Assembly: GCA_031285625.1 (NCBI GenBank)
Contig: JAITVV010000060.1
Span: 1-59,912 of the forward strand
Reading direction: 5' to 3'
DNA from: Prevotella sp.
GTDB lineage: Bacteria; Bacteroidota; Bacteroidia; Bacteroidales; Dysgonomonadaceae
DNA length: 59,912 nt
Shown: piece after piece, positions 14,225 through 59,815 of the stretch
How positions within the stretch are numbered: the stretch's first letter is position 1
How the letters are laid out: each line of letters starts with the position of its first letter
Made by a program: the position numbers and the translations under genes
The notes under the pieces: generated by a model
Seen by the model: the letters and a program-made list of their open reading frames with translations, nothing else
Told to the model about the DNA's origin: nothing
Database searches by the model: none

Positions 14225-14275
14225 AAAAGGTAACACAAAAAATGAATAGAAAAGCTGTCACCTTTGTCACTTTTT
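14225..14275 (+). repeat. Dispersed 9-mer element, copy A
   Basis: AAAAGGTAACA-N20-TGTCACCTT-TGTCACTTT-TT. Confidence 0.8.
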
Positions 14276-14294
14276 AGTTAAAATCGTATTTAGA

Positions 14295-14825
14295 ATGATT
14301 GTACCGGAATATATAAAACCATTGTTATCTGATATTCATACCGAACAGGAATGTCTGACTAAAGCAATATTGAATATAGGTGACTCCAACCGTTTTCATG
14401 TATTGCATAATGGTGTTGTGGAGCCCATTCTGGACGATCTTTATATTTGCCCTGAAGATAATGATTACCTGAGGGTACTTTTACAACCTGTAGATAATGA
14501 CTCTCTATATGAGGTTTATGATGGTAGGCTTTATGGATATGATAATATGTTCTGTGACGAATATCCTGAGTCACAGCTTCCTCTAAAACAACTGGAACTG
14601 AATGGTTCTACTGTGTTTTCGGGGGATATAACACTCGGATACAATATCGACTATGAGGATGAGAAGGATTATTTTCCTATTGATGAGAACGGTATGGTTG
14701 AGGTGATGAACCGGACTGAGAAAATTTCATGGGAGCAAGTAAAGGAAGAAGGTTATGACTATATTCATATCTCCTTTGTAAATGAAAAAGGAGATTCTGT
14801 ATTTGTAGATTTTGAACTGGCTTAG
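14295..14825 (+). CDS. Hypothetical acidic protein (possibly immunity-like)
   Basis: 176-aa ORF, very acidic, no recognised catalytic motif. Confidence 0.65.
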   Translation: MIVPEYIKPLLSDIHTEQECLTKAILNIGDSNRFHVLHNGVVEPILDDLYICPEDNDYLRVLLQPVDNDSLYEVYDGRLYGYDNMFCDEYPESQLPLKQLELNGSTVFSGDITLGYNIDYEDEKDYFPIDENGMVEVMNRTEKISWEQVKEEGYDYIHISFVNEKGDSVFVDFELA

Positions 14826-14855
14826 AAAATATATACATCAAATAAAATAGAGACA

Positions 14856-15560
14856 ATGAAAAATATAATCTTAACACTTCTGTTTATCGGACTGTTCGTT
14901 AGTTGTACCGAAAAAAAATCACCCATAATTCATGATGACGAACAAGCAAATAACCTGACAATGGATAGCCTGTTGGAAGATACAACGAAAGTCCTGAATG
15001 TAGATTTACCTACATTAATTGACTCAGTCAATCAGATTTTAGTTCATGAAATACGTATTTCAAGCGGAAAAGGGCGCGACTTGTCTTTCTCTTCGAAGAA
15101 ATCAGGAGACTATTACGGGGTAGGATCAGGTTTAATAAATTTAATTTTTGAAGACGTAAAAAATAATAAGTCATATCTACTCACGAATAATCAGCTGCAG
15201 ATATCATCATATGAAGTATGCAGCCGTTTAAAAGTAAAAATTGGAAAAGCTTACATTCTATTTCGTGTAATTGATAAGGATTACAATAATGATGGCGTTT
15301 TGGATGGTAGAGATACACAAGGCTTATATATAAGCAATCTTGACGGAACATCTTTCTCTAAGATAACAAAAGATAACGAGATGCTAAGAAATGGAGAATG
15401 GATGTATCCGTTAAACCGATATTATTTCAGGACTACCGAAGACTCTGATAAAAACGGATATTTTGACTTTAAAGACAAGATACATTATTACTATATACAA
15501 TTTGAAGAACAAGGCTATCAAGTGATGGAATATAATCCATTGGAAATGCTTAATAAATAA
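14856..15560 (+). CDS. Hypothetical lipoprotein with EF-hand-like loops
   Basis: Lipobox FVSC; DKDYNNDGVLD and EDSDKNGYFD loops. Confidence 0.75.
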   Translation: MKNIILTLLFIGLFVSCTEKKSPIIHDDEQANNLTMDSLLEDTTKVLNVDLPTLIDSVNQILVHEIRISSGKGRDLSFSSKKSGDYYGVGSGLINLIFEDVKNNKSYLLTNNQLQISSYEVCSRLKVKIGKAYILFRVIDKDYNNDGVLDGRDTQGLYISNLDGTSFSKITKDNEMLRNGEWMYPLNRYYFRTTEDSDKNGYFDFKDKIHYYYIQFEEQGYQVMEYNPLEMLNK

Positions 15561-15566
15561 GAAAGA

Positions 15567-16721
15567 ATGGCAAGAGAATTTAAGATGATAGCCAAGACAA
15601 TGGCCGGGTTAGAAGATGTTTTGGCAGAAGAACTGATAGGTTTAGGCGCAAATAATCTGGAACTCGGGAAACGCATGGTTTCTTTTGAAGGGGATCTGTC
15701 ATTAATGTATAAGGCAAATATACATTGTCGTACAGCCCTACGGATACTTCGTCCTGTTTATGAATTCAGAGCTAAAACTACTGACGAAATATATAAAAAG
15801 GTAAAGGCCATGAACTGGTTTGAGCATCTGAACGAAAATAGTACATTCGCCATAGATGCAATTACTTTTTCCGATTATTTTACCCATTCCAAATTCGTAG
15901 CATACAGGGTAAAAGATGCTATAGCGGACTACTTTATGCAAAAGACAGAAAAGCGACCATCTGTAGACACACAGAATCCTGACTTACTGATCAATTTCCA
16001 TATTGCCCACGACAAGTGTACATTGTCATTCGACAGTTCCGGAGAATCGTTGCACAAAAGAGGATACCGCATTGCACAAACCGAGGCTCCCCTAAACGAA
16101 GTACTGGCTGCCGGAATGATATTGAAAACCGGCTGGCGTGGAGGGTCTGGCTTCGTAGACCCCATGTGTGGTTCAGGAACACTACTGATAGAAGCTGCAA
16201 TGATAGCAATGAATGTGCCTCCAGGAATTTACAGGCAGAACTTTGCATTTGAGAAATGGGAAAACTTCAATGCAGACCTATTTGAAACCATATATAATGA
16301 CGATAGCGGAGAGCGTGAATTTACTCATAAGATATATGGCTCGGATATCTCATCCGAGGCTATTGATATAGCGGCAAAAAATATAAAAAATGCAGGATTG
16401 GAGAAATGTATTAATCTGAAAGTGATGCCTTTTGAGAAATACACAGAAGCCCCTGCCGAAAAAGGTATATTAGTGACAAATCCTCCATACGGCGAACGTA
16501 TAAAACCAGAAGATTTGATGGGTCTATACGAAAGTATAGGAGAACGGCTGAAACATGTATTTATGGGGTATTCTGCATGGATATTAAGCTATAAAAAGGA
16601 GTGCTTCGACAAGATAGGATTGAAACCATCCAAGAAGATACAGTTAGTTAACGGATCGCTACAATGCGAATTCCGTAAATATGATATATTCGCGGGGAAG
16701 AAGTACCCTAAAGAAAAATAG
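15567..16721 (+). CDS. THUMP-domain RNA methyltransferase (RlmL-like)
   Basis: LHKRGYR, APLNEVLAAG, DPMCGSGT and NPPYGER motifs. Confidence 0.9.
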   Translation: MAREFKMIAKTMAGLEDVLAEELIGLGANNLELGKRMVSFEGDLSLMYKANIHCRTALRILRPVYEFRAKTTDEIYKKVKAMNWFEHLNENSTFAIDAITFSDYFTHSKFVAYRVKDAIADYFMQKTEKRPSVDTQNPDLLINFHIAHDKCTLSFDSSGESLHKRGYRIAQTEAPLNEVLAAGMILKTGWRGGSGFVDPMCGSGTLLIEAAMIAMNVPPGIYRQNFAFEKWENFNADLFETIYNDDSGEREFTHKIYGSDISSEAIDIAAKNIKNAGLEKCINLKVMPFEKYTEAPAEKGILVTNPPYGERIKPEDLMGLYESIGERLKHVFMGYSAWILSYKKECFDKIGLKPSKKIQLVNGSLQCEFRKYDIFAGKKYPKEK

Positions 16722-16831
16722 AGACTACTAGCTCATATACAAAAAACTCATACAGCATGAATTATAATTCATAACTAATTCCTTATATTTGCTGTCTGTT
16801 TTGATTATTAATTTATTCTATATCAATAAAA

Positions 16832-17839
16832 ATGAGAATTGCTATTGTTGGCACAAGTGGTGCTGTAGGTCAGGAATTTCTTAGAGTTCTTGATGAACGA
16901 AATTTTCCTATTGAGGAATTAGTGTTATTCGGGTCTGCCAGAAGTGCAGGCAACGTATATACATTTCGTGATAAACAGTATACAGTCAAGGAATTGAAGC
17001 ATAACGACGATTTTAAAGATATAGATATCGCTTTTGCTTCTGCTGGGGGAAGTGTATCTGTCGAATTTGCCGATACCATTACAAAACATGGTGCAATAAT
17101 GATAGATAACTCAAGTGCATTTCGTATGGACAAGGACGTTCCTCTTGTAGTACCAGAAGTAAATGGAGAAGATGCAAAAATACGTCCCAAAGGCATTATT
17201 GCCAATCCCAACTGCTCTACAATACAAATGGTGGTAGCAATGGACGTGATCGAAAAAATATCGCATATTAAACGTGCTCATGTAGCTACTTATCAAGCTG
17301 CATCAGGAGCAGGAGCTGCCGGTATGGACGAGTTGATCAACCAGTTTAAGCAAATAGCATATAATAATGATGTGACTGTAGAAAAATTTGCATACCAACT
17401 GGCATATAATGTCATACCTCAGATTGATGTTTTCACAGATAACGGATATACAAAAGAGGAGCTGAAAATGTATAACGAAACACGTAAAATTATGCACTCT
17501 GATATCCAGGTTAGTGCAACGTGTATACGTGTGCCCGTTCTACGTTCACACTCGGAGGCTATCTGGGTAGAAACAGAAAGGCCTGTATTACCTCAAGAAG
17601 CACGTGAAGCTTTTGCTAAAGCAGATGGAATCGTTCTACAGGACAATCCGGCTGAAAAAGATTATCCTATGCCTCTGTTTGTTGCCGGTCATGATCCGGT
17701 ATATGTAGGTCGTATACGCGAAGATATTGCCAATCCGAACGGACTGACATTCTGGGTAGTTGCAGACCAAATCAAGAAGGGCGCCGCCTTGAATGCCGTA
17801 CAGATAGCGGAATATTTGATCAAAGAAAAAGCTATTTAA
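16832..17839 (+). CDS. asd: Aspartate-semialdehyde dehydrogenase
   Basis: [24 protein letters not shown] and [12 protein letters not shown] motifs. Confidence 0.97.
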
Positions 17840-17850
17840 TAGAGAAACTG

Positions 17851-17881
17851 TTTGTATAATCAAAACAAACAATTATATTTG
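17851..17881 (+). promoter_or_regulatory. Bacteroidetes promoter for tRNA-Ser
   Basis: TTTG (-33), 19 nt spacer, TATATTTG (-7). Confidence 0.65.
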
Positions 17882-17919
17882 CATCGCAATTGGCAAAACA
17901 TAGCCTTTTTGCGATTTCA

Positions 17920-18006
17920 GGAGGGATGGGTGAGTGGCTGAAACCACCAGTTTGCTAAACTGACGTACGGGTAACTGTACCGGGGGTTCGAATCCCCCTC
18001 CCTCCG
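17920..18006 (+). tRNA. tRNA-Ser(GCT)
   Basis: Acceptor stem GGAGGGA/TCCCTCC, D-loop GAGTGG, anticodon loop TTGCTAA, long variable arm, T-loop GTTCGAATC; CCA not encoded. Confidence 0.96.
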
Positions 18007-18017
18007 CGGAATAGTTT

Positions 18018-18053
18018 AAACGTTGAAAATCAAAAGATTTTCAACGTTTTTTT
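18018..18053 (+). terminator. Intrinsic terminator after tRNA-Ser
   Basis: AAACGTTGAAAATC-aaaa-GATTTTCAACGTTT followed by a T-tract. Confidence 0.8.
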
Positions 18054-18165
18054 GTGTCCAGATATGATTTAGTATCTGTTGGAACATCCTAAATTAATGT
18101 TAAAATCCTGCATTTTTTTTTCATAATTTTATCTATATATAGCAAAAACAAACTAACAAACGATT

Positions 18166-18906
18166 ATGAAAAATTTATTTTTATTTACTTTTCTGATATT
18201 CTTTGCTTTTTCCTGTAACAGTGACATAGAGGATATAAGCTCTGATAATGAGAGTATTGCCAGAACTGTAAACTTTATTTACAAAGGTAAAAGTTATGCA
18301 TCTGGCTGTAAAGAAGTAGGTTCTGAATTGTTTTTTACCAATGAAGAAGTTGGGAAACTTTATTTGGAACTTAAAACATTACCGGAGCTTATAGAATTTG
18401 TTCATGAAAATGGAGATATTGAATATTTTGATAATGATACCCATTTGGCTGCATCTATGAAAGTTGATATTGACCAAACCAAAGATACTAAAAGCGCCTA
18501 TCTTATTCAAGGGCATATTGTATTAAGAGAACATACTCTTGCTGATGTAAATAAGGGTACTGAATATAGATACTCTTTTCAATCGACTGCTTCTGTAGGC
18601 TGGTTTGATGTATTGAAAATACAAGATTTCAGATATATGCCAAGGTCAACAACTTCCTCTGTTGCAAATTTCAATGATAAACTTACTGGTATATATGCTC
18701 AAAGAAGCGCCAAAGGTACGCTTCGCGTAAGGATTTATCAGCATATAAACTATAAAGGAAAATCTAGAATATTTGACACTAACGGGGCTGTTATTAGTGT
18801 AAATAATCTGAAATCTTATAACATGTCCGGAACATTATTCTGGAAAGAAAACTGGAATGATGAAGTATCTTCTATAATTGTAAGCTTGTGGCATTCTCAA
18901 TATTAA
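18166..18906 (+). CDS. Lipoprotein with beta/gamma-crystallin-like C-terminal domain
   Basis: Lipobox AFSC; Greek-key signatures NFNDKLTG, IYQHINYKG and NWNDEVSS. Confidence 0.7.
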   Translation: MKNLFLFTFLIFFAFSCNSDIEDISSDNESIARTVNFIYKGKSYASGCKEVGSELFFTNEEVGKLYLELKTLPELIEFVHENGDIEYFDNDTHLAASMKVDIDQTKDTKSAYLIQGHIVLREHTLADVNKGTEYRYSFQSTASVGWFDVLKIQDFRYMPRSTTSSVANFNDKLTGIYAQRSAKGTLRVRIYQHINYKGKSRIFDTNGAVISVNNLKSYNMSGTLFWKENWNDEVSSIIVSLWHSQY

Positions 18907-18922
18907 TAAAATCATCCGAAAG

Positions 18923-18951
18923 AAAAAGGGGAAACTAAGTTTCCCCTTTTT
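18923..18951. terminator. Bidirectional terminator
   Basis: AAAAAGGGGAAACT-a-AGTTTCCCCTTTTT between convergent genes. Confidence 0.8.
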
Positions 18952-18973
18952 ATCCTATAATTATAGATATCGG

Positions 18974-20653
18974 TTATTTTTTATCTCCAACCAAGACACC
19001 TGATATGCACCAATAACTCAGACTTGAACCTTCAGGATCACCTATCGGTATGGCTACTTTTAGCTGATGTTCTCCAGCCTTAACATCGCCAATGTGGATA
19101 AATACAGGGTAACTCACTGTGCCCGGGCACCAACCCGAACGGCTTAGATCAGAGGATGATAACCCGTTTGCAAAATTACCTGAAGCAGGATTTAACTCCC
19201 TGTAGCTACCGCAGTCTTCGCGCCAAGGGGTGTACGCTATTAATCGTGTCCCATCCATAAATATCTCGTTCAGTTTAGGGTTAAATTCATCCCCTCCGCC
19301 CCAACCGCCATGGCCGGTAGATATATAACGGATATATGCATCTTTGAGGTCAATATCAGTTTTAAAGTTCACGATAAGTGAGTCGTTGCGGAACAATCCT
19401 GCAGGATATGCCTGACCCGCCATTTCCATAATATTCGTTGTTGTGAATAATGGATATACCTCTTTTTCTGATCTATCGCCCATTGGGTAATATTTAATCT
19501 TCAATGAGATATTATGCCCATCTTTGGCGTAGTTGCCAATCCATGCTCCTACCCATACTTCGTTTTTCAATAATTTTGCATAATCGGTAATTTCCTGTTT
19601 AAAGACTACCGAATCAGGCCAGTTGTAATCAGCCACCTGGATATGGTTATAGCCTTTTACTCCGAATGAAGTATAAAAACGCATTAGCTCCAAAGGAGGA
19701 AGATAATCTGGTGTAACTGTTATTCCTTCATACGAGTCCCCATTTTTATCTTTATATTGAGGCAGTGCTTCTTTCCCTTTTAACAATCCATCAAAGAAAG
19801 TTTGCTTTTTATCAGTAGGAATAATGAAAATACTTCCTGTACGATCATATGCATCACCTTCTGAGTGCTGTGCGAGTTCTGCAAAAATGGAGTATTTTTT
19901 ATTATCCTCCGGTAGTTTTACTTTTTTAAGAACAATAGAACCATTTGCAAACTGCATTACCTCAGTATTATTCAATTGTGTTACTTTAGGTATATCTCTG
20001 AAATAAATACTTTGGTTACTAAATACATTATATGAAAGTACCTGACTCTGTTGTATCCGATAATTAAATGCCGGTGCAGAAAGGGCATCTCCTGTCAGGC
20101 TGGGTTTAAGGTTATAAGATTCGTTTATCAGTTCTATTTTTATTGCTTTTTCTTCCGATTGTCCATTTCTTATTACCTTCAGAACAACTCCATCCGGTAT
20201 CGCAACGCCAGGTTGCATTGAGCCTTTTACTCCGAGATTTGTAGTATACCATATTTCCATTGTATTCGAGTTAATCACGGTTTTAGCCTTCTTGCATAAA
20301 TACCCTGCTATTGTTTCTGTTTCAGGCAGAAATTCTAACTTGTCATTGATTGTAAACGTACGTGATGTGTAGAATTCATTTCCATTCTTTAATCTGGCTG
20401 TTTTTATCTCTTCATTTTTATTGAAATCCAAATAAGTACATTGTAGAGGAGTATCCGGATTTTCTTTTACATATTGGCGGCTAATTTTCACCCAATTATC
20501 TGATATCTCCATAATAGAATTCACTCCTTCATGAGCTTTTCCATTTACACTTGTTTCATAGGTAATACGTACTGTCTTAAAGTCTGTTTTGAGTTGAGCA
20601 CTCAATACAAAAATGGGAACAAATAACAAAAACAGGAATAAGTTTTTCTTCAT
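18974..20653 (-). CDS. Peptide-N-glycosidase F-II-like protein (GLPGLI-like N-terminal domain plus PNGase F domains)
   Basis: ETIAGYLCKKA...IWYT N-terminal domain; DAYDRTG, GHGGWGGGDEF and RSGWCPG motifs; signal peptide. Confidence 0.85.
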   Translation of the reverse strand: MKKNLFLFLLFVPIFVLSAQLKTDFKTVRITYETSVNGKAHEGVNSIMEISDNWVKISRQYVKENPDTPLQCTYLDFNKNEEIKTARLKNGNEFYTSRTFTINDKLEFLPETETIAGYLCKKAKTVINSNTMEIWYTTNLGVKGSMQPGVAIPDGVVLKVIRNGQSEEKAIKIELINESYNLKPSLTGDALSAPAFNYRIQQSQVLSYNVFSNQSIYFRDIPKVTQLNNTEVMQFANGSIVLKKVKLPEDNKKYSIFAELAQHSEGDAYDRTGSIFIIPTDKKQTFFDGLLKGKEALPQYKDKNGDSYEGITVTPDYLPPLELMRFYTSFGVKGYNHIQVADYNWPDSVVFKQEITDYAKLLKNEVWVGAWIGNYAKDGHNISLKIKYYPMGDRSEKEVYPLFTTTNIMEMAGQAYPAGLFRNDSLIVNFKTDIDLKDAYIRYISTGHGGWGGGDEFNPKLNEIFMDGTRLIAYTPWREDCGSYRELNPASGNFANGLSSSDLSRSGWCPGTVSYPVFIHIGDVKAGEHQLKVAIPIGDPEGSSLSYWCISGVLVGDKK

Positions 20654-20838
20654 CGAAGTGACATTTTAAAATAAAGGAATTCAAGATTGACATGCAAAAA
20701 TAACATATTCATTAGTTTTACGAAAAAATTTCAAACATTTAATTACTATTTGCCAAACCCATTAATATTTTCTCATATAAAGGCTTTTATATATATTTGT
20801 TCTTAATAACCATATAGGATTACTAAATATCAGGAATT

Positions 20839-21225
20839 ATGAAACACGCAATGATTGAAAAAGTCAATACGCTTTTTGATGCTGTAACGAAAGACGAACG
20901 CTGGAACATCAATGATGGGACTCTATTTGATGCGTTCGGTATGTCTTTGTATGGTTATGCATTTGGTTTTGGACGACTCATCTGTTTTCTTGAAGCAGAA
21001 GATATAAATACTATTATAGAAGAGAAACTTATCAGTCTCGGAGCAGGAGAAAAATATGTAAAAGGATTAGTCGATTATGCGTTTTCTACTTTTCAAACAC
21101 CAACCGAAGGAATACTGTCACAATTAATCAGTATAGGACATTCACATTTTGCAGACTCAAATATAACAGACTTAAAAGAACTGATATTCAAAAATGCAGA
21201 AATCCTGAAGAAAAATTATCCCTAA
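20839..21225 (+). CDS. Hypothetical protein (possible immunity-type protein)
   Basis: 128-aa helical ORF; family assignment is from impression only. Confidence 0.6.
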   Translation: MKHAMIEKVNTLFDAVTKDERWNINDGTLFDAFGMSLYGYAFGFGRLICFLEAEDINTIIEEKLISLGAGEKYVKGLVDYAFSTFQTPTEGILSQLISIGHSHFADSNITDLKELIFKNAEILKKNYP

Positions 21226-21240
21226 ATTTAATCAATTAAA

Positions 21241-22131
21241 ATGTATAAGTTCCGTAAACTTGTGGCAATCGAACCAATAAGTTTGATTTCTTCAGCAGAA
21301 AAAGCTCTGCATTCTTTCGCAGAGGAAGTGGTTATGTACGATAATATACCGGCAGAAGATGAAGAGATAGCTGTCCGTATAGGGGATGCAGATGCTGTAT
21401 TATTGAGTTATACTTCCCGCATAAACAGGTTGGTTATGGAGAAATGTCCGAATATCAAATATATAGGCATGTGCTGTTCATTATATTCTCCCGAAAGTGC
21501 GAATGTAGATATCCGCTACGCTAATGAAAGAGGCATAGTTGTAACTGGTATACGTGACTATGGAGATGAAGGCGTCGTTGAATATGTTATAAGTGAATTG
21601 GTATGTTGTCTCCACGGATTTGGACAAGAGCCCTGGGATGGAATGCCACGTGAGATTACCGGGCTGAAGGCTGGAATTATCGGACTTGGAAAATCAGGAG
21701 GTATGATTGCAGATGCTTTGAAGTTTTTTGGCGCTGAAATTGCTTATTTTTCACGGACAGAGAAACAGGAAGCAAAAGTAAAAGGGTATCGTTTTATACC
21801 TTTAGACGAACTTCTTGCTCAAAGTGAGATTATCTGTTGTTGCCTAAATAAAAACACAAAATTATTACACGAAAAAGAATTTGCTCAACTTGGCAATAAT
21901 AAAATATTATTCAATACAGGCTTATCTCCTGCATGGGACGAACCAGCCTTTACTAGCTGGTTAGATAGCAATAATCTATGCTTCTGCGATACAATAGGAG
22001 CTCTAGGTGGAACACATCTTCTTAGCCATCCACATGTTCGCTGTATGCAGGTATCCACAGGCCGTACGCGCCAGGCTTTTGATCGCTTAAGCGAAAAAGT
22101 ACTCGCCAATCTGTCAGAATACAATGGGTGA
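21241..22131 (+). CDS. D-2-hydroxyacid dehydrogenase-like NAD(P)-binding protein
   Basis: GIIGLGKSG Rossmann motif, NVDIRYANERGIVV and LDELLAQSEII. Confidence 0.8.
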   Translation: MYKFRKLVAIEPISLISSAEKALHSFAEEVVMYDNIPAEDEEIAVRIGDADAVLLSYTSRINRLVMEKCPNIKYIGMCCSLYSPESANVDIRYANERGIVVTGIRDYGDEGVVEYVISELVCCLHGFGQEPWDGMPREITGLKAGIIGLGKSGGMIADALKFFGAEIAYFSRTEKQEAKVKGYRFIPLDELLAQSEIICCCLNKNTKLLHEKEFAQLGNNKILFNTGLSPAWDEPAFTSWLDSNNLCFCDTIGALGGTHLLSHPHVRCMQVSTGRTRQAFDRLSEKVLANLSEYNG

Positions 22132-22902: not shown

Positions 22903-22956
22903 ATTGGCAAAGATAGCCTTTATTATCAGATAAAATATTTAAACTTTCCCAACCAG

Positions 22957-26415: not shown

Positions 26416-26424
26416 ATAAAGAAC

Positions 26425-26459: not shown

Positions 26460-26472
26460 ATAGATTACTCAT

Positions 26473-30800: not shown

Positions 30801-30860
30801 ATCAATATTATGTAACTATACAAAGAGAATAAATCATCTGAATTTAAACAATTTACTCAA

Positions 30861-30910
30861 AAAAGGTGACAAAAGTAACACCTTTTTAGTTGTTTTTCAT
30901 GTTACTTTTT
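30861..30910 (-). repeat. Dispersed 9-mer element, copy B
   Basis: Minus strand AAAAAGTAACA-N19-TGTTACTTT-TGTCACCTT-TT. Confidence 0.85.
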
Positions 30911-45477: not shown

Positions 45478-45540
45478 TTTATTACAATAGTCATTTATCT
45501 TATATAATTCTTTAGAATATTGCGTTTCTCTAACTGTTGG

Positions 45541-45618
45541 TTGTCATCCTGAGGCACGAAGGATATTTCTTCTCTCCTTGACAAATGGGCCGAGATGCTT
45601 CCTTAGTCAGCATGACAA
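45541..45618. repeat. Palindromic interspersed element, copy 2
   Basis: TTGTCATCCTGAGGCACGAAGGAT...AGATGCTTCCTTAGTCAGCATGACAA. Confidence 0.75.
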
Positions 45619-48293: not shown

Positions 48294-48339
48294 TCCATAT
48301 AACCAACAATATACATTAAATCGTAAATAAATTTTTAAT

Positions 48340-50322: not shown

Positions 50323-50406
50323 TTGTATAATTAAGACAAACCTTTTAGTATATTTGTACTAGAAGGTTTGCTTTATTTTTTATGAACTAACATATTAAGA
50401 TATATC

Positions 50407-51216: not shown

Positions 51217-51242
51217 TTTGAATTTGATAGATACAGAATAGG

Positions 51243-51272
51243 GCTGTGTACAAAGTGTACACAGCTTTTTTT
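51243..51272 (+). terminator. nagB terminator
   Basis: GCTGTGTACA-aag-TGTACACAGC followed by a T-tract. Confidence 0.8.
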
Positions 51273-51288
51273 GTTGTTCACAATTCTC

Positions 51289-52278: not shown

Positions 52279-52374
52279 ATTTGCAAGTTTGTATATCCAA
52301 AGATGAATAATTTAATCAGAAAATGAAAATATTTTTATCAATATATAGGTAATTCGGAAATACTTTATTACATA

Positions 52375-52425
52375 AAAAAGTAACAAAAGAAAATAGGATA
52401 AAACCTGTTACTTTTGTCACTTTTT
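52375..52425 (+). repeat. Dispersed 9-mer element, copy C
   Basis: AAAAAGTAACA-N20-TGTTACTTT-TGTCACTTT-TT. Confidence 0.85.
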
Positions 52426-52444
52426 ACAATTTATATCTTTAGTA

Positions 52445-55270
52445 TTACTTTGTTACTTCATCTATCAGATAGAATATGGATTTAAAGTTGATGTCACTAT
52501 ACTCACTCATGCCTATTTCGCAAGTACGGCTTGTAGAATATCCATCTTTGCAATCGGCGGGGATCTGTTCATTCAGATGTCTTTGTCCGTGTGCATTCAA
52601 TTCGGGATATGTAAACCCTCTGTCACCTGCAAAACCGCAACAATTAGAGTCTACCAGAGCGACTTCTTTTGAGCACAGGTGAGCCAATTGCAATAATTTC
52701 TGTTCCATACCTATTTTCTTCACAGAACATACAGGGAATATGGTTACTATATCGCGAGGGTGTTTTACCTGAAGCTTTGGCATTACAAAATCAAGCATAA
52801 ACTCTATAGGGTCGTATATCCTTAAGGCCTGGTTTTGGTTAGCTTCATGGAAAGTATAGAAACACGGACTCATATCAAAAAGTATAGGATACTTCCCATT
52901 ATCGGAGGCCTTTAGCAATGCTTCTTCCAATTCCTTCGATTTGCGTGCTCCCTCTTCTTTTAAGCCTTTACTACTAAAAGCCATACCACAGCAAAGACTG
53001 TTGATACCTTCAGGATAAATTATTGTAAATCCGGCACGTTGCAGTAGTTCTTGCGTTTTCTTAGTTAGCTCCACATCATCTTTTTCATATCCTTTCGATT
53101 TTCCCATCGAACGGTTGATACACGAAGGAAAATAAACAACCCTATCTATCTGTCCCTCATTTATAATGCCTTCCTTAATTTTATGGGCGCCCTGAGGCAT
53201 ATCTTTATTCCATTTGGGAATAGTTTTAAATGAGGCTGTACGCATAGCTGATGCAATCCCTCCCATAAGAGTATCACCCAGGAGAGAATGGAAGAAATGT
53301 ACAAAGTTGAGACCACCCCTCAATACTGAAGTCGTGCCTGCCATACGGTTACCTATATAAGAAGCTACGCTTTTCGCCGTATCCGAAGACTGATCATGGC
53401 GCCAATCTTTTATAAACTTACCGGTATCTATCTTTACAGGACAAACAAGGCCACACAATCCGTCTGTAGCACAGGTCTCATCCGAATAGTACTTGGCATC
53501 ATGCAACATTTGCTTCAGGCGTGCAGGATCTTCTCCCAATGCTTTGAGCCGCGAGATTTCACGAGCTATAACTATACGCTGACGAGGAGATAAAGTAAGC
53601 CCTTCTGCCACGCAATTAGGTTCACAGAAGCCACATTCCATACATTTATCTATAATCTCATTTGCAGCTGGCAGCGGTTTAAGATTCTCCAAGTGTATCT
53701 TCGGATTTTGATTAATTATTACTCCCGGATTAATCAATTTATGCGGGTCAAATATATCTTTAATCCGAAGCATGATCTTATATGCAGCTTCTCCCCATTC
53801 TTTTTCTACAAACGGCGCCATATTGCGTCCTGTTCCATGTTCGGCTTTGAGTGAGCCATCAAACCTGTTGACAACAATATCTGCCAGTTCATCCATCATA
53901 TCCGCATATTTCTGTACTTCGCTAGGGCTGTTAAAATCCTGGGAAAATACAAGATGGAAATTTCCATCAAGGGCATGCCCGTATAGTACAGCATCAGCAT
54001 ATCCCGAACGTTTAAACAAGTCTTTCAAAGCTACACAGGCCTCGCCAATACGCTGTATAGGAAAAGCGACATCCTCAATCAGGCATGTAGTACCTGTTTT
54101 ACGTAGTCCCCCGATTGTCGAGAGAAGTCCTTTCCGGGCTTTCCAGTTGAAGTTATATTCTTTAGGATTGGAAGTAAATTTATAAGGCTGAATAGTCGAA
54201 ATAGACTCAATTGCTTTACGGATCACAGTCTCTTTTTCATCCATATCTTCTTGCTCATTTGCCTGTATCTCAACTAAAAGCAGACAGGCTGTTTCGGGCA
54301 ATGTACGGAAGTAATCAGGAGCATCGGGATCATCTTCAATGGAGCGGATAGAATCCCTATCGAGTAATTCTACTGCCGATACCGGAGTTTGTTTCAGCAT
54401 AGGGACAACATCACAGGCTTTCTCTATAGTATCATATATCATCAGGGTGCATGCCTTATATTTCTCATCCACCACAGTATGATAGGTTATATCTGAAGTG
54501 AAGGCCAGTGTTCCTTCCGAACCGATCATAAGATGTTTTATGATTTCGAACGGATCTTCGTAATCTACCAATGCATTGATACTGTATCCTGTAGTATTCT
54601 TTATTTTATATTTCTGTTTGATCCGTTCTGTTAATACAGCATCGGATTTTATATCATCCCTTAATTGCTCTATCTCTCGTATTATTTCGGGATGCTTCTC
54701 CCTGAAAGCTTTCTTACTCTGCTCATCCGATGTATCCAGTATTGTTCCGTCATACAGCACGATACGTATATCAGCTATAGTCTTATATGAATTCTGATCG
54801 GTACCGCAACACATACCGCTGGCATTATTTGCAGCTATCCCCCCTATCATTGCAGCATTAATCGAAGCCGGGTCGGGCCCGATTTTCCGACCGAAAGGTT
54901 GCAGGTGTATATTAGCCCGGACACCCGTAATACCGGGTTGCAGTTTTATTTTTAATGCTTCATCGTCGAGAATGGTATATTTTCTCCATTCATGGGTAGC
55001 CACCATCAGTACAGAATCGGTTATAGCTTGCCCCGACAAGCTTGTACCAGCTGCACGGTATGTCACCGGAATATTCAATTGTCCTGTTTGACGTATCACT
55101 TCTACTGCCTCCTCTTCGGTGTGTATCTGCACCACTATTTTAGGAATCAGGCGATAGAAACTTGCATCAGTTCCGTATGCCAGTAGCTGTAAAGGATTTG
55201 TAATAATACGTTTCGCAGGGATCGTCTTCGACAATCTTTCTTTTAATTGCTGATAATTAGCCGGTAGCAT
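52445..55270 (-). CDS. FAD- and Fe-S-containing D-lactate dehydrogenase (Dld-II type)
   Basis: RAAGTSLSGQ, GSEGTL, KAEHGTGRNM, CMECGFCEPNC and CCG domains. Confidence 0.88.
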   Translation of the reverse strand: MLPANYQQLKERLSKTIPAKRIITNPLQLLAYGTDASFYRLIPKIVVQIHTEEEAVEVIRQTGQLNIPVTYRAAGTSLSGQAITDSVLMVATHEWRKYTILDDEALKIKLQPGITGVRANIHLQPFGRKIGPDPASINAAMIGGIAANNASGMCCGTDQNSYKTIADIRIVLYDGTILDTSDEQSKKAFREKHPEIIREIEQLRDDIKSDAVLTERIKQKYKIKNTTGYSINALVDYEDPFEIIKHLMIGSEGTLAFTSDITYHTVVDEKYKACTLMIYDTIEKACDVVPMLKQTPVSAVELLDRDSIRSIEDDPDAPDYFRTLPETACLLLVEIQANEQEDMDEKETVIRKAIESISTIQPYKFTSNPKEYNFNWKARKGLLSTIGGLRKTGTTCLIEDVAFPIQRIGEACVALKDLFKRSGYADAVLYGHALDGNFHLVFSQDFNSPSEVQKYADMMDELADIVVNRFDGSLKAEHGTGRNMAPFVEKEWGEAAYKIMLRIKDIFDPHKLINPGVIINQNPKIHLENLKPLPAANEIIDKCMECGFCEPNCVAEGLTLSPRQRIVIAREISRLKALGEDPARLKQMLHDAKYYSDETCATDGLCGLVCPVKIDTGKFIKDWRHDQSSDTAKSVASYIGNRMAGTTSVLRGGLNFVHFFHSLLGDTLMGGIASAMRTASFKTIPKWNKDMPQGAHKIKEGIINEGQIDRVVYFPSCINRSMGKSKGYEKDDVELTKKTQELLQRAGFTIIYPEGINSLCCGMAFSSKGLKEEGARKSKELEEALLKASDNGKYPILFDMSPCFYTFHEANQNQALRIYDPIEFMLDFVMPKLQVKHPRDIVTIFPVCSVKKIGMEQKLLQLAHLCSKEVALVDSNCCGFAGDRGFTYPELNAHGQRHLNEQIPADCKDGYSTSRTCEIGMSEYSDINFKSIFYLIDEVTK

Positions 55271-55442
55271 GATATTTAGTTTTTTTATTTATCTATATAG
55301 GAAACAGCTTGCATAAAACCAATGCAAGGTATAAAATAAAGTGAAAAGTAGAAAGAGAAAAGGCATAACTAGATTGGTATGCTAATTAAAATTCGTAAAA
55401 ATCACCTAATATATTAAGAGCTCTTTGGTATATTTGGAATAT

Positions 55443-55508
55443 AAATAGTAAGAGGGAATACTAATAAAGAAATGTTACTTTTGCTACTTTTGCTACTTTT
55501 GTTACTTT
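55443..55508 (+). repeat. Dispersed 9-mer element, copy E, with four tandem units
   Basis: AAATAGTAAGA-N19-TGTTACTTT-TGCTACTTT-TGCTACTTT-TGTTACTTT. Confidence 0.8.
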
Positions 55509-55528
55509 CTGATTTTACTGGTTAAATT

Positions 55529-56377
55529 ATGGAACATTTAAAAATAAAAACATTAGAAAGCATAAGCACAACAGATATACTGGGATGCTTCAATGCAGCA
55601 TTCTCAGATTATCAAACACCGACACATCTGGCTTTACACCAGCTTGAAAATAAAATGAAGAGTGAAAATGTTCTTGGCGAATATTCCATTGGCGTCTTCG
55701 ACAATGAACGTTTAGTCGGTTTTATCCTTCACGGATATGATATAATTAAAGATAAAAAAGTCTTATATAACGCGGCTACAGGGGTTATCCCCGAGTACAG
55801 AGGGCAGAAATTGACAGGAAGGATGTACTCTTTCGGGCTACCTGAATTCAAAAGAGCAGGAATAGAGAGCATCCGGCTGGAAGTAATAACTGAAAACCTA
55901 CGTGCACACAAAGTATACAAACGTATAGGATTTGAGGAAAGACGCACATTATGCTGTTATAAAGGTACCGTACATGCCTCTCCAACGCAAACAGAGAAAT
56001 CTATCAAAAGAGTAAAATCATGTAATTGGGATAAACTGAAAAGCTTTTGCATATCAGAACCCACATGGCAAAACTCTACTGAATCGATATCCCGTAGCGC
56101 AGGAGACACTGAAATATGGGGTATTTATGATAATGATAAACTTATAGCATACCTGGCGTGTATTCCTGAAAGAAAAAGGATTCTGTTATTCGCTGTAAAA
56201 CCGGAGTACAGGAAACAAGGGCTGGGATCTTCCCTTTTTGGATATATCGCCTCGCTCTATGGCCCGGAACTCAGTGTAGTGAATGTGGATATAAATGATA
56301 CGGTTACGAATAGTTTTCTCGGTTCTATTGGTTTATCCGAATTTCTCAGGCAATATGATATGTGTCTGGTACTCTGA
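55529..56377 (+). CDS. Tandem GNAT acetyltransferase
   Basis: Two acetyl-CoA binding motifs: VIPEYRGQKL and VKPEYRKQGLG. Confidence 0.88.
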   Translation: MEHLKIKTLESISTTDILGCFNAAFSDYQTPTHLALHQLENKMKSENVLGEYSIGVFDNERLVGFILHGYDIIKDKKVLYNAATGVIPEYRGQKLTGRMYSFGLPEFKRAGIESIRLEVITENLRAHKVYKRIGFEERRTLCCYKGTVHASPTQTEKSIKRVKSCNWDKLKSFCISEPTWQNSTESISRSAGDTEIWGIYDNDKLIAYLACIPERKRILLFAVKPEYRKQGLGSSLFGYIASLYGPELSVVNVDINDTVTNSFLGSIGLSEFLRQYDMCLVL

Positions 56378-56425
56378 TAATACACCTACATTATACTTTA
56401 CAAATACAAAATTATAAAAGCTATT

Positions 56426-57007
56426 ATGGATTTTCTACAATGTATGGACAACTTTCCATGGAACAGGTTTGCAACAGTTTACGAAACGAGTTCCAAATGT
56501 TTAAAAGACCCTTTTATTAAGATATTTAAGGGAGATGGCGAAGCTTCAGATTACAAATTTATTATTGACAGGCTCGAACATCAGGAAACCCTATATAGAA
56601 TCACCCCTTGGGGATTGAAGTTCTATATTTGTTTACTTGAAGAAGGAGATGCAGATAGAAATTCTATATTACAAAATATAAAGATACTTTTTGAAGCAGC
56701 TAACTATGATTGCCAGGTGAATACAGCAATGGCATATAAGCCGACAAAAGGCAATCTGGCAAAAGCTGAAATAATAAAACAAAAACTATTCGATGATGAT
56801 TTCGATGGGAAGATGGACACTGATTTTCTGAAAATATTCAAATCCATAGACCGCAATTTTATGCAGATATTTATAATGGAGTTTATACAGCAAAAGAAAC
56901 AATTATTGGAGGAATACACTAGTTCAACAAATAGTAATATTTCAGCAAATGCAACAGCCTTAATAAATTCTATTAACAATCCAAAAGAATATAAATTTGG
57001 AAAATAA
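56426..57007 (+). CDS. Hypothetical helical protein
   Basis: 193-aa ORF containing PWNRFATVY and EHQETLYRITP; function unknown. Confidence 0.7.
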   Translation: MDFLQCMDNFPWNRFATVYETSSKCLKDPFIKIFKGDGEASDYKFIIDRLEHQETLYRITPWGLKFYICLLEEGDADRNSILQNIKILFEAANYDCQVNTAMAYKPTKGNLAKAEIIKQKLFDDDFDGKMDTDFLKIFKSIDRNFMQIFIMEFIQQKKQLLEEYTSSTNSNISANATALINSINNPKEYKFGK

Positions 57008-57192
57008 AGACGGCTAGATAGAAAACGAAAACAAAGATTGATGGATAAATACTCAGGTATTAAAATATTTGTTTCAATCACGAAATTATTAAATTAAATA
57101 AACTATGTGAAATTCAAGATATAGAGATTATATTTCCGCTATTTTATTTATTAAATACAAGAAAAAAGACTAATTTTGTTGGTCAAATTTAA

Positions 57193-58536
<1,344 letters not shown>

Positions 58537-58563
58537 GAAGTATATTTCTTAATATATGAAAAA

Positions 58564-58597
58564 ACCGATACTCATATGAGTATCGGTATTTTATTTT
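58564..58597 (+). terminator. eno terminator
   Basis: ACCGATACTCATATGAGTATCGGT palindrome followed by a T-rich tract. Confidence 0.75.
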
Positions 58598-58672
58598 CTC
58601 ATAAATCTGCTTATATTTGTGCTACTACAAACAATTTGTCAAATTACCACTCATTGGTAATTAATGTAGCTT

Positions 58673-59707
58673 ATGAAATATATTCGTATTATCCTTTTTC
58701 TATTATTTATCTTAACCAGTATCCCTGGCTATTCTCAGAACAATAAAGACACTCCACGCAACGGTGAGGGAGTCCGCGCCTTTCTCCAACGAAATAAGCG
58801 CACTCAAGAAGGTCACTATACAGAATTCCTAAAATTAAACAAAGGTAAATTTGGGAAGGGTAATACACTATTAAAAGGCGTAAAGTATACTTTGCCCCCT
58901 ATATCGAAAATAAAGGAAGATAAGACAGATAATATAAAAGAGACAGCTAAAGCACAAACTGGGAAAAAGCGGAAGAACAAGCTTTTCGGAAAAAAATATG
59001 AAGATTACACTATAAAGTCTGACCGTCTAAAAGGCGCCTGTTTTTTTCTTTCAAGCGGACATGGCGGACCGGACTGTGGTGCCATCGGGAGAGTAGACGG
59101 ACGGGTGCTTCACGAAGACGAATATGCATACGATATAACATTACGTCTGGCCCGTGCCTTAATGGAAGAGGGTGCCACTGTACATATGATCATCCAGGAT
59201 GCAAAAGACGGCATCAGAGATGACAGATATCTGGCGAATAGTAATCGTGAAACTTGTATGGGAGCCGCCATCCCCCTCAATCAGGTAAAAAGGTTAAAGC
59301 AAAGAAGCGATAAGATAAACAGTCTAAGTAAAAAATCAAAAGAAAGATATAAACGGGCAGTCTTTATACATCTGGACAGCCGTAGTAAGAAGCAACAGTT
59401 AGATGTGTTTTTCTATCATGCTGAAAAAAGTGTAGAAGGCAAAAGACTAGCAAATACAATGAGGGAAACATTTAACGATCAATATAACAAACATCAGCCA
59501 AGCCGGGGATTTACAGGAACAGTGACTTCACGTAGCCTCTATGTTTTAAATAACTCTACACCTGTTGGTATCTTTGCTGAACTTGGGAACATTCAGAACA
59601 CCTTTGATCAACGTCGTTTTTTAGAATATGATAACAGGCAGGCATTAGCAAACTGGATGTGCAGAGGATTTATAAGGGATTATGAGAATTCGAAAAAGAA
59701 AAAATAA
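58673..59707 (+). CDS. N-acetylmuramoyl-L-alanine amidase (Amidase_3)
   Basis: Signal peptide; SGHGG, HEDE, FIHLD and AELGN motifs. Confidence 0.88.
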   Translation: MKYIRIILFLLFILTSIPGYSQNNKDTPRNGEGVRAFLQRNKRTQEGHYTEFLKLNKGKFGKGNTLLKGVKYTLPPISKIKEDKTDNIKETAKAQTGKKRKNKLFGKKYEDYTIKSDRLKGACFFLSSGHGGPDCGAIGRVDGRVLHEDEYAYDITLRLARALMEEGATVHMIIQDAKDGIRDDRYLANSNRETCMGAAIPLNQVKRLKQRSDKINSLSKKSKERYKRAVFIHLDSRSKKQQLDVFFYHAEKSVEGKRLANTMRETFNDQYNKHQPSRGFTGTVTSRSLYVLNNSTPVGIFAELGNIQNTFDQRRFLEYDNRQALANWMCRGFIRDYENSKKKK

Positions 59708-59767
59708 CAGAGTTAGTCTTTTCTTAGAAAATTATCTATACTATATGCGATATATCTTTGTCAAAAT

Positions 59768-59815
59768 AAAAAGTAACAATAAAAACGGTAAAGAAGCTGT
59801 TACTTTTGACAAGTT
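59768..59815 (+). repeat. Dispersed 9-mer element, copy D
   Basis: AAAAAGTAACA-N19-TGTTACTTT-TGACAAGTT. Confidence 0.8.

Follow-up and report, generated by a model that had tools for sequence, protein, structure and literature searches.

The repeat module and its copies in the window

The window, that is, the whole stretch of DNA analysed, comprises 59,912 nt of contig JAITVV010000060.1 (assembly GCA_031285625.1) and contains five copies (A to E) of a repeat module of 50-100 bases, which lies between genes and is present in about 200 copies in this Bacteroidales genome (designated G000). The closest named relative of this genome was Dysgonomonas sp. ZJ279. The features in the window were:

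14189..14196, plus strand: TTATCTAT box upstream of copy A, 14 nt past the stop codon of the ORF at 12625-14175
14225..14275, plus strand: core of copy A, with left arm 14225-14235, a 20-nt spacer, 9-mers 14256-14264 and 14265-14273, and a T-tail
30859..30910, minus strand: core of copy B, with left arm 30910-30900, a 19-nt spacer, and 9-mers 30880-30872 and 30871-30863
52374..52425, plus strand: core of copy C, with left arm 52374-52385, a 20-nt spacer, and 9-mers 52406-52414 and 52415-52423
55443..55508, plus strand: core of copy D, with degenerate left arm 55443-55453, a 19-nt spacer and four tandem 9-mers 55473-55508
59730..59808, plus strand: copy E, with box 59730-59739, left arm 59768-59778, a 19-nt spacer, and the first 9-mer plus TG 59798-59808
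59809..59912, plus strand: left end of a mobile element, joined exactly behind TGTYACYTTTG and running off the contig

The ATG of an orphan ORF (14295) follows copy A and that of a GNAT gene (55529) follows copy D. Copy B lies 145 nt upstream of the clpB ATG (30716), has a box-like AATGTCTAAT at 30940-30931, and is absent from the clpB upstream region of Dysgonomonas sp. ZJ279. Copy C, with a box-like stretch at 52333-52349, is oriented against both neighbour genes. Seventeen nucleotides at 55473 in copy D are missing in the related strain of RNA run X1; the RNA runs found consist of assembled contigs from strains about 90-97% identical. The second 9-mer of copy E is not degenerate; it is replaced from 59809 by the mobile-element end.

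A preliminary description of this DNA had reported five full copies with spacers of 20, 19, 20, 19 and 19 nt; their positions and spacer lengths were confirmed, as was the occurrence of TACTTTTG in the right arm of four of the five (copy A has CACCTTTG instead). A degenerate right half proposed at 595-622 failed the search pattern and was not counted.

Both right-arm 9-mers together read TG-T-[T/C]AC[T/C]TTTG-T[C/T]AC[C/T]TTTT. Among the 204 right-arm sites of the genome, the tandem 9-mers numbered two in 172, three in 17, four in one and one in 14. The left arm was found at an 18-21-nt spacer in 160 sites (18 nt in 6, 19 nt in 37, 20 nt in 85 and 21 nt in 32), and spacer length is thus constrained genome-wide. 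The idea of a free spacer was half right, as two A-tracts inside it are conserved in the genome-wide position matrix. Spacers ending in two G/C bases had been described, and this holds for four of the five window copies; genome-wide only the last base is consistently C (0.43) or G (0.39), and the preceding one is A (0.40) or G (0.31).

The element had been delimited too narrowly. An AAAWTT(A/G)TCTWWTATA box, referred to below as the TTATCT box, is located upstream of the right arm in 134 of 204 sites, at 57-62 nt in 40 copies and 67-71 nt in 48. Downstream of 201 elements, 43 extra same-strand 9-mers were detected, 26 of them at +63 to +67. The core 9-mer recurs at +64 and, inverted, at -26.

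Abundance and distribution

The repeat is strongly enriched over shuffled DNA. The pattern GTAASA-N18-21-TGTYACYTTTG had five matches in the window and none in each of 100 dinucleotide-preserving shuffles, and the right-arm pattern with at most one mismatch had six window matches vs. a shuffle mean of 0.08. The exact 15-mer TGTTACTTTTGTCAC occurred 81 times in 4.84 Mb, where about 0.02 occurrences are expected from base composition. The 204 right-arm sites are scattered over 96 contigs and not arrayed. Copy number ranged from 0 to 514 among 24 genomes of the same genus, and no family copies were detected in 16 other genera of the order; the family is genus-restricted among the genomes searched. 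A search of the window against Rfam at the gathering threshold returned one tRNA only and left the element unmatched.

Orientation and neighbouring genes

Genes were called with a crude ORF caller (first ATG, at least 90 aa), so that distances may be off and small genes missed. With these calls, 175 copies have a gene start and 15 have a gene end as their downstream neighbour, nine copies being intragenic and five without a neighbour; hence 175 of the 190 copies with a called downstream gene face a gene start. Co-directional gaps held 115 copies oriented with the genes and four against them, and 48 copies were in divergent gaps. Density per kb of intergenic DNA was 0.362 with genes, 0.351 in divergent, 0.181 in convergent gaps and 0.013 against genes. 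Only four copies are oriented against both neighbour genes, and copy C, already remarked on as pointing into a convergent gene, is one of these true exceptions. Solitary intergenic 9-mers also face gene starts (50 vs. 17). Replichore bias was 58% for copies and 60% for genes, none beyond that of the genes.

Sixty randomly chosen downstream genes included functions in cell division, repair and tRNA modification, glycoside hydrolases, peptidases and transporters, and 13 lacked a Pfam match. A shared function was not found among these 60, in agreement with the preliminary description of unrelated neighbours, which argues against a regulon.

It is very improbable that the inverted arms form a transcription terminator or RNA hairpin, or that the element is a replication origin of iteron type. 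A T-run follows the inverted arms of 9-11 nt, many copies lie directly past a stop codon (the TTATCT box begins 0-7 nt behind the upstream stop in 27 of 96 copies), and the mean folding energy was -6.3 kcal/mol vs. -3.0 kcal/mol for shuffled sequences, all of which fit a terminator or hairpin. However, the centres of the left arm and first right arm were complementary in 61 of 160 copies vs. 70.4 expected if independent, and this lack of covariation upholds the earlier judgement that the element is not an RNA hairpin; nor is it a DNA hairpin. In addition, the loop would be 20 nt, the 48 copies in divergent gaps have nothing there to terminate, and Rfam gave no match. The suggested analogy with SaPI/P4 iteron origins did not hold: such origins occur in one or few copies per replicon beside an initiator or primase gene, whereas here there are 204 sites and no replication or primase neighbour among the 60 genes. 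A replication origin was excluded given the roughly 200 gene-oriented copies per genome and no replichore bias of their own. Most likely, the element would be a movable promoter cassette and not an origin.

A predicted promoter at the core of the element

The first right-arm 9-mer with the TG of the second spells TG-n-TAnnTTTG, which is the -7 box of the Bacteroidetes primary sigma factor. A Y-A dinucleotide lies 2-3 nt behind the box and is followed by a T-tract. Of 144 in-register copies, 94 have an exact TAnnTTTG and 143 an nAnnTTTR, in each case at one fixed position within the first 9-mer. In the position matrix A13 is invariant and position 12 is C (0.76) or T (0.23). In a second family found in the relative G004, variation within the first 9-mer falls on the "n" positions of the box, with A2 and TTTG mostly kept.

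The published account of Bacteroidetes primary-sigma promoters (-7 TAnnTTTG and -33 TTTG in B. fragilis and B. thetaiotaomicron; PMC7366714) allows a comparison: the element shares with them TAnnTTTG, the orientation toward the downstream gene and, at trmD, the position of the ordinary box. According to that account, most 5' UTRs of B. thetaiotaomicron are 23 nt long, the median is 32 nt, and the -7/-33 motif precedes 81% of primary start sites (PMC7366714). The distance from array end to ATG was less than 40 nt in 49 of 175 copies (15-29 nt in 33), and for these proximal copies the box-to-ATG distance matches that of primary-sigma promoters. Among upstream regions free of the element, 1,073 of 2,145 have a canonical box, with a peak of box-to-ATG distance at 20-29 nt. 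The median distance from array end to ATG was 93 nt, and half of the copies are far from the ATG.

Unlike the primary-sigma promoter, the element lacks TTTG at -33 (19-21 bp upstream of the box), where the position matrix has an A-tract, and an additional TG precedes the box by one base. The ordinary promoters of this genome likewise have a weak -33 motif. In our reading, the left arm is about 6 bp too far upstream to serve as -33. None of the upstream features of the element was found in 643 ordinary promoter boxes of the same genome; unlike these, the element has about 40 further conserved positions (the second 9-mer, A-tracts, inverted arm and TTATCT box), and the core is conserved far beyond the needs of a -7 box.

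In all five relatives TAYCTTTG precedes the trmD ATG by about 27 nt. In G000 this position is taken by the core, at a distance of 36 nt from the ATG, and no further promoter-like box is present. Where the gap was at least 60 nt, other TAnnTTTG motifs occurred between element and ATG as often as in controls (15/42 vs. 15.1, 21/34 vs. 16.1, and 20/30 vs. 15.3). A promoter-like box distinct from the element is conserved between the element and the gene at clpB, mfd, dfp and cca.

A portable promoter, as the preliminary description had suggested, is the best-supported reading because of the orientation, the geometry of the -7 box and the replacement at trmD. We give about an even chance to the full form of this reading, judged from sequence, in which the repeat would be a genus-restricted, modular promoter cassette whose invariant heart is an outward-facing predicted promoter. 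RNA polymerase would then start at or beside the A of the Y-A dinucleotide, giving 5' leaders of about 20-35 nt for copies near a start codon, and distal copies may provide a second promoter further upstream. The upstream parts (left arm, two phased A-tracts and TTATCT box) may have accessory roles, as bent or UP-like DNA or as sites for a factor. These accessory parts appear specific to this species group, since the core is combined with different upstream modules in other species of the genus. Counting against a promoter are the 15 copies that point into gene ends, copy C included, and the 120-bp tandem arrays in which the core occurs in the relative G011, an arrangement not usual for promoters.

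The regular layout could also reflect an array of binding sites, the 9-mers, for a DNA-binding protein particular to the lineage, for example a nucleoid-associated protein or global regulator, or else for the primary sigma factor or RNA polymerase held at several near-consensus boxes, with promoter activity secondary or regulated by the protein. We regard this as unlikely, though it accounts for several features: the positions of the 9-mer are fixed (an inverted copy near -26, tandem copies at 0 and +9 and, for 26 of the 43 downstream 9-mers, a further copy at +63 to +67), the alternative spacings are about one helical turn apart (box at 57-62 or 67-71 nt; fourth 9-mer at +64 or +74), spacer length is constrained and spacer sequence is not, and hairpin covariation is absent. 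The conservation of the element upstream of separate proximal promoters at mfd and cca and the bias of the solitary 9-mers toward gene starts also fit a binding array. However, no candidate protein was found, the 60 downstream genes are functionally incoherent, and the layout is not conserved in the genus, since the left arm and A-tract spacer are missing in the G011 versions and in the second family of G004. Descent from a common ancestor copy can also explain the fixed spacings.

Orthologous loci and mobility

Orthologous positions carry the module at mfd in G000, G019 and G022, at cca in G000, G043, G022 and G019, and at the copy A locus in G000 and G043; in each case the arms are conserved and the spacers differ. 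The box upstream of copy A is also present directly past the orthologous stop codon in G043, G004, G024 and G013, and different cargo genes lie behind this same box in five species. Such orthologous copies persist between species whose flanking coding DNA is about 75-80% identical. The module is shown to be kept under selection at these sites (mfd, cca and the copy A locus).

The module is likewise shown to have been gained at other sites, even inside an operon junction. Presence/absence at orthologous gaps was variable, with a core of the same family in the same gap in only 8 of 25 relative-by-locus comparisons. At ftsW/rodA, a 184-nt insertion consisting of the box and two tandem units separates a gene pair that in five of five relatives is about 5-30 nt apart; these short gaps do not align, and no target duplication could be defined. 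Neighbouring copy pairs were direct in 21 of 22 cases, and in G000, G004 and G013 direct copies of the core lie on both sides of inserted units. New copies of the predicted promoter cassette may arise by insertion or recombination at promoters.

Mobility was inferred here from presence/absence, as it was for the putative mobile promoters (PMPs) of Nijveen, Matus-Garcia and van Passel (PMC3575422). The element shares with PMPs, Correia elements and ERIC the occurrence of similar non-coding DNA before unrelated genes in many copies. The definition of PMPs required at least 80% identity across a minimum of 50 nt, whereas the element keeps only arms, A-tracts and spacing and leaves the spacers free (PMC3575422). 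Unlike Correia elements, the repeat has no terminal inverted repeats at its outer ends, and, unlike this comparison set as a whole, it is confined to a single genus among the genomes searched.

A selfish non-coding mobile repeat of MITE or REP type, with no host function and an orientation bias due only to the purging of copies that fire or block the wrong way, is a doubtful alternative. Consistent with it are the range of 0 to 514 copies within one genus, the sequence variants of individual species, the tandem arrays and common direct pairs, the insertion within an operon junction, the few shared gaps, and the location of copies among other small repeats. As in REP/BIME/REPIN, the repeat is short and extragenic, has hundreds of copies and species-specific variants, and is often paired; unlike them it has no selected hairpin, direct rather than inverted pairs, and a strong gene-start bias. 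In a MITE the inverted repeats would be terminal, but here the inverted arms are internal, with the box lying beyond the left arm on one side and the second 9-mer beyond the first on the other. The PF01797 (Y1/RAYT) profile had no matches in G000 (94% complete), G007 and G014, three in G011 and one in G017. Also against a selfish repeat, arms, A-tracts and spacing are kept in orthologous copies across species while spacers differ, a target duplication could not be defined, and the core is the sole promoter-like box at trmD.

A mobile element joined at the -7 box

The mobile element that interrupts copy E is present in five copies. Its left junctions were exactly behind TGTYACYTTTG in five of five cases, each in a different copy of the repeat family, and junctions identical to that of copy E were found on contigs C74, C23, C10 and C64. 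Right ends were found on C12, C58, C83, C49 and C46, and at all five right junctions the element's own TGTCACYTTTG is followed by TCAC of the target. None of the ten ends is more than 815 nt from the end of a contig, leaving the body of the element unassembled, and the one ORF that could be read gave a weak match to RVT_3 (E 0.005). The base after TTTG at the junctions is T or A, not C. This mobile element was absent from five relatives searched. The earlier proposal of a recombination site stands in the narrow sense that the five-copy element attaches at the first 9-mer.

For CTnDOT, a conserved TTTGC is reported, cleaved between T and G and followed by 5 bp that may differ (PMC2034462). As at the attDOT and attB sites of CTnDOT, a multi-copy mobile element is joined exactly at TTTG with the same short core at both junctions, and the sequences are homologous left of the junction and unrelated right of it (PMC2034462). 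The likeness is that of the mobile element using the core, and not of the core's own function.

It is quite improbable that the core is chiefly an attachment site for IntDOT-like tyrosine recombinases that integrate non-coding units or gene cassettes, its promoter likeness arising because such recombinases target -7 boxes. The left and right junctions and their CTnDOT-like layout point in this direction, as do the inserts flanked by direct core copies and the varied cargo behind one box at the copy A locus. Against it, T rather than C stands behind TTTG, no integrase gene was linked within the assembled ends, whose only ORF is the weak RVT_3 match, and the five-copy element is absent from the relatives searched. 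Moreover, paired copies lack homology in their left-arm and spacer parts, so that the pairs did not arise by recent integration of one circle. This reading would also leave the TTATCT box, A-tracts and +64 copy unexplained.

Within the portable promoter reading, the -7 box may serve as attachment site for at least one integrative element, which would bring its own copy of the box. A broader version, in which the site has a dual use, as a strong promoter and, through its -7 box, as the place where IntDOT-like recombinases attach, is speculative and rather unlikely. If it were true, non-coding units and perhaps gene cassettes would be integrated or exchanged precisely at promoters across the genus, and each event would leave or bring a working promoter copy, making a promoter-anchored cassette system. 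Such dual use would explain the direct core pairs around inserts, the tandem arrays of G011, the cargo at the copy A locus and the spread of the promoter.

Compared by eye with the core consensus of integron attC sites, the arms have only AAC...GTT in common. Insertion-sequence ends in Bacteroides can carry outward promoters, so that mobile DNA delivers a TAnnTTTG promoter to the adjoining gene. The dispersed family differs from these in being attached to no IS body; like them, the five-copy mobile element carries a copy of the core at its right end.

Occurrence of the repeat in the window and the genome

Five full copies of an intergenic repeat, with spacers of 20, 19, 20, 19, and 19 nt, had been reported for the window in a preliminary description. 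The pattern GTAASA-N18-21-TGTYACYTTTG matched exactly those five places with the same spacer lengths, and gave no match in 100 dinucleotide-preserving shuffles of the window. The lowest coordinate of each copy is as follows:

Copy A, 14225
Copy B, 30861, at clpB
Copy C, 52375
Copy D, 55443
Copy E, 59768

The right-arm pattern was likewise enriched over shuffled DNA (six matches in the window against a shuffle mean of 0.08). A degenerate half proposed at 595-622 failed the search patterns and was not counted as a copy.

The repeat is a large family in this Prevotella sp. assembly (G000; 4.84 Mb, 96 contigs, 37% G+C). The exact 15-mer TGTTACTTTTGTCAC occurred 81 times, compared with about 0.02 expected from base composition, and a degenerate search for the right arm, here called the core, detected 204 sites. 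A left arm was present 18-21 nt away in 160 of them (18 nt, 6; 19 nt, 37; 20 nt, 85; 21 nt, 32), and the core consisted of two tandem 9-mers at 172 sites, three at 17 and four at one. The number of 9-mers at 55473-55508 differs by strain, with four in the window and a contig assembled from an RNA run of a related strain (X1) being 17 nt shorter. At copy C, contigs assembled from such runs (X1-X4) are interrupted or branched, the behavior expected of a repeat.

Of 24 further genomes in the genus, 19 contained an exact 19-mer pattern, with per-genome counts of 0 to 514; it was absent from all 16 genomes of other genera of the order, and the reversed pattern, used as a control, gave 0-1 matches. 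The nearest named relative of the ClpB encoded in the window was that of Dysgonomonas sp. ZJ279 (86% identity). No account of the family turned up in the openly accessible literature, where queries on Dysgonomonas promoters, TAnnTTTG repeats, Bacteroidetes repeats or MITEs and the family 15-mers returned nothing relevant. Presence on phages was considered with a 20-mer pattern, which matched 97 stretches of viral contigs, and the 80 fetched (L230-L309) contained 82 matches. Only three of these had a left-arm-like word and none had the full layout, so the viral matches give no evidence for the family on phages. Judged by eye, most were either unrelated GTTACC repeats or coding sequence for collagen-like Gly-X-Y repeats; the latter, read on the reverse strand, make up most of the viral matches and are a trap for motif scans.

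Structure of the module

The consensus of the aligned copies was A5-GTAACA, N3, A5, N6, A4, S, TGT[T/C]AC[T/C]TTTGT[C/T]AC[C/T]TTTT. The spacer, described earlier as free, does vary in sequence between copies, but two A-tracts within it are conserved at 0.7-0.9 and to that extent it is not free. The module also extends beyond the boundaries first given to it. An AAAWTT(A/G)TCTWWTATA box (the TTATCT box) stands 5' of the right arm in 134 of the 204 copies, at a distance of 57-62 nt in 40 copies and 67-71 nt in 48, a difference of one helical turn. The box starts 0-7 nt after the stop codon in 27 of the 96 copies with an upstream gene end and within 27 nt in 55. A stricter box pattern had 175 intergenic matches, with the core following in 72; the core-less matches are unoriented and were therefore attributed to chance. 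Downstream of 201 elements, 43 extra 9-mers were detected on the same strand, 26 of them at +63 to +67 (15 exactly at +64) and seven at +72 to +75, compared with only nine on the opposite strand. Solitary intergenic 9-mers outside elements also face gene starts (50 vs. 17).

The conclusion that the element is not an RNA hairpin was upheld. A hairpin or terminator was rejected; the variable center bases of the left arm and the first right arm were Watson-Crick complementary in 61 of 160 copies, against 70.4 expected under independence. The mean fold was weak (-6.3 kcal/mol; shuffles, -3.0 kcal/mol). As an RNA family the repeat failed as well, since Rfam returned no match to the elements (window at the gathering threshold; two ends of the mobile element with an E cutoff of 0.01).

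A separate palindromic repeat with GTCATCCTGAGG...-type arms, of which 47 arm matches occur genome-wide, has a copy in the window next to a core-less box:

45494-45510, core-less TTATCT box on the strand opposite both neighboring genes, directly before the palindromic repeat
45541-45617, copy of the palindromic repeat

The RNA-run contigs break at this palindromic repeat as well, and the repeat stands between two direct element copies in five places. It was considered as a carrier of the core and rejected; the core lies within 90 nt after only 9 of the 47 arms, an association that is enriched and not obligatory.

Orientation and neighboring genes

All gene distances rest on crude calls (first ATG, at least 90 amino acids, greedy by length). 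The downstream neighbor of the 204 sites was a gene start in 175 cases and a gene end in 15; nine sites were intragenic and five had no neighbor. In co-directional gaps, 115 copies pointed with the genes and four against them. Normalized to intergenic length, copies numbered 0.362 per kb in the direction of the genes and 0.013 per kb opposite to them, with 0.351 per kb for divergent and 0.181 per kb for convergent gaps. Copy C, singled out earlier as pointing into a gene end, is one of the fifteen such copies. A replichore strand bias, which had been put forward as a check, did not exceed that of the genes (91 of 156 elements vs. 1,624 of 2,714 genes) in a rough test based on the local GC skew of a draft assembly. 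Left arms were considered as promoters of divergent genes and rejected, as ATG distances ranged from 54 to 663 nt with no cluster, two overlapping ORF calls aside.

The genes neighboring the window copies had been said to share no function, and this held for a random sample of 60 out of the 119 downstream genes lying no more than 150 nt from an element. They included FtsW/RodA, Mfd, TrmD, the CCA-adding enzyme, Dfp and a MutS-like protein, besides several glycoside hydrolases, SusD-like proteins, peptidases and transporters, and 13 had no Pfam match. A regulon was rejected because these genes are functionally unrelated. Two elements (C13:14321 and C69:17946) lie directly 5' of SusD-like genes and have a GATAGCTTTTAGCCATTAGCT stretch upstream in common, by which the module appears to be positioned within susC/susD-type pairs.

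Evidence for and against a promoter

The suggestion that the element is a portable promoter was favored by a -7 box, by the ATG spacing of proximal copies and by a replacement at trmD, and opposed by distal copies and separate proximal boxes. Among 144 in-register copies, the first 9-mer and the TG of the second together spell TAnnTTTG in 94 and nAnnTTTR in 143. The former is the Bacteroidetes -7 box, which belongs to the primary sigma factor (PMC7366714). Two to three bases after the box stands a pyrimidine (C 0.76, T 0.23) followed by an invariant A, which is a plausible candidate for the transcription start. One base 5' of the box is a TG, which we take to resemble the extended -10 of other bacteria. 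TAnnTTTG was found in 1,073 of 2,145 element-free upstream regions, with a peak box-to-ATG distance of 20-29 nt. In 49 of 175 copies fewer than 40 nt separate the array end from the ATG, and in 33 the distance is 15-29 nt. Such proximal copies would have predicted leaders of about 20-35 nt; in Bacteroides thetaiotaomicron, most leaders are 23 nt long and the median is 32 nt (PMC7366714). At trmD, TAYCTTTG precedes the ATG by about 27 nt in each of the five relatives compared; in G000 the core occupies that place and there is no other box.

The median element-to-ATG distance was 93 nt. Where the gap was at least 60 nt, an intervening TAnnTTTG was as frequent as in controls, and clpB, mfd, dfp, and cca each have a separate, conserved proximal box 3' of the element. 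The -33 TTTG, the canonical partner of the -7 box, is absent from the element, and the element's upstream features are absent from 643 ordinary promoters of G000. A second positioned -7 box downstream was not found in general, nAnnTTTR occurring at +42 in only 9 of 144 copies. With the distal copies, the other proximal boxes, the missing -33, the copies that face gene ends and the core arrays of a relative (G011) set against it, we hold the reading of the element as a promoter, which is drawn from sequence, to be about evenly balanced. Distal copies would then be second, upstream promoters, and an accessory role would fall to the left arm, the A-tracts, the TTATCT box and the +64 copy.

A further motif, TTGGCAAGTATTTTGAA, lies on the minus strand at 30775-30759, about 45 nt 5' of clpB, and Dysgonomonas sp. 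ZJ279 keeps TTGGCAAATTATTTGAA (locus L001, about 1431-1447). Its GG-to-TTG spacing is reminiscent of sigma-54 promoters, and TTGGCAAGTATTTTGAA may be clpB's own heat-shock promoter.

A mobile element joined at the core

Copy E is cut at 59808/59809, and the remainder of the window (59809-59912) is foreign sequence. This foreign end recurs in four more elements, all different (contigs C74, C23, C10, and C64), and is again joined precisely after TGTYACYTTTG. Five further contig ends (C12, C58, C83, C49, and C46) carry the other end of a repeat, which closes on its own TGTCACYTTTG, next to TCAC of the target. No contig joins the two sets; from the equal counts of five and the complementary junctions, we infer that they are the two ends of one five-copy mobile element, which seems to bring a first 9-mer of its own at the far end. 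On C10, 815 nt of the element can be read and look, by eye, richer in G+C; the single readable ORF matched only RVT_3, and weakly, and the element had no match in the five relatives searched.

CTnDOT sites have a conserved TTTGC with T/G cleavage, and the next 5 bp may differ (PMC2034462). The junctions here have the same kind of layout, but the base after TTTG is not C, and no recombinase was found in the readable part of the element, whose body is unassembled. The proposal of a recombination site is supported in a limited sense, in that the five-copy element joins exactly at the core. On a bolder reading, by analogy and suggested by these junctions, promoters and attachment sites would coincide in this genus. 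The -7 box as an exact integration point would tie promoter structure to mobile-DNA targeting.

Comparison with known systems

In its workings the family comes closest to dispersed repeats that bear promoters and to 'putative mobile promoters' (PMC3575422). Unlike these, it lacks inverted repeats at its outer ends, its spacing is fixed while its spacers are free, it repeats a -7-like 9-mer at set positions, and its modules are combined differently in other species of the genus. A REP/RAYT element was rejected, as no selected hairpin and no Y1/RAYT transposase were found in G000. The analogy to iteron origins of the SaPI/P4 type did not survive, the family failing the origin test.

If the promoter reading is true, about one transcription unit in ten of G000 would be driven or preceded by the same intergenic cassette, ready-made and insertable even between two operon genes. 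Bacteroidetes promoters are unusual and have been little studied beyond Bacteroides and Flavobacterium. The family would be a concrete, testable case of promoter propagation in this phylum and a compact candidate promoter part for the genetics of Dysgonomonas-like gut bacteria.

Conservation and gain among relatives

The full module stands at the orthologous place upstream of mfd in G000 and two other genomes of the genus (G019 and G022), and of cca in G000, G043, G022, and G019; copy A is retained between G000 and G043. In these orthologs the arms and the box are conserved and the spacers differ. A core of the same family occupied the same gap in 8 of 25 relative-by-locus comparisons. One conserved gene pair is roughly 5-30 nt apart in five of five relatives (by eye, frames unchecked) and separated by 184 nt in G000, the gap consisting of a box directly after the stop codon and two tandem left-arm/spacer/right-arm units. 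Of 22 element pairs within 1 kb, 21 were direct. At the copy A locus, the next conserved (THUMP-like) gene follows the stop of ORF 12625-14175 by 25-35 nt in seven genomes of the genus; in G000, G043, G004, G024, and G013 a TTATCT box follows the stop codon, and then differing genes or repeats. The stretch 14176-15566 and the fetched loci L082-L092 form a variable region.

A second core family of G004 (63 copies) reads TGTnAnnTTTGTCAGGTTTT, with mostly the A and TTTG of the box kept and the 'n' positions varying, which counts toward the promoter reading. This family, TGTnAnnTTTGTCAGGTTTTAGTTAAAAT (L155-L174), has no left arm and lies amid other small repeats, including ACTAG-rich units and GC-rich palindromes, in units that have direct core copies on either side. 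In G011, a stretch of 79.5 kb was sampled and contained 11 cores, without a left arm and largely in 120-bp tandem arrays. In the arrays at L194 7054-7696 and L198 169-518, the core ends every 120-bp unit. The G011 assembly (2.5 Mb, 74% complete) has 514 pattern matches and three Y1-transposase genes.
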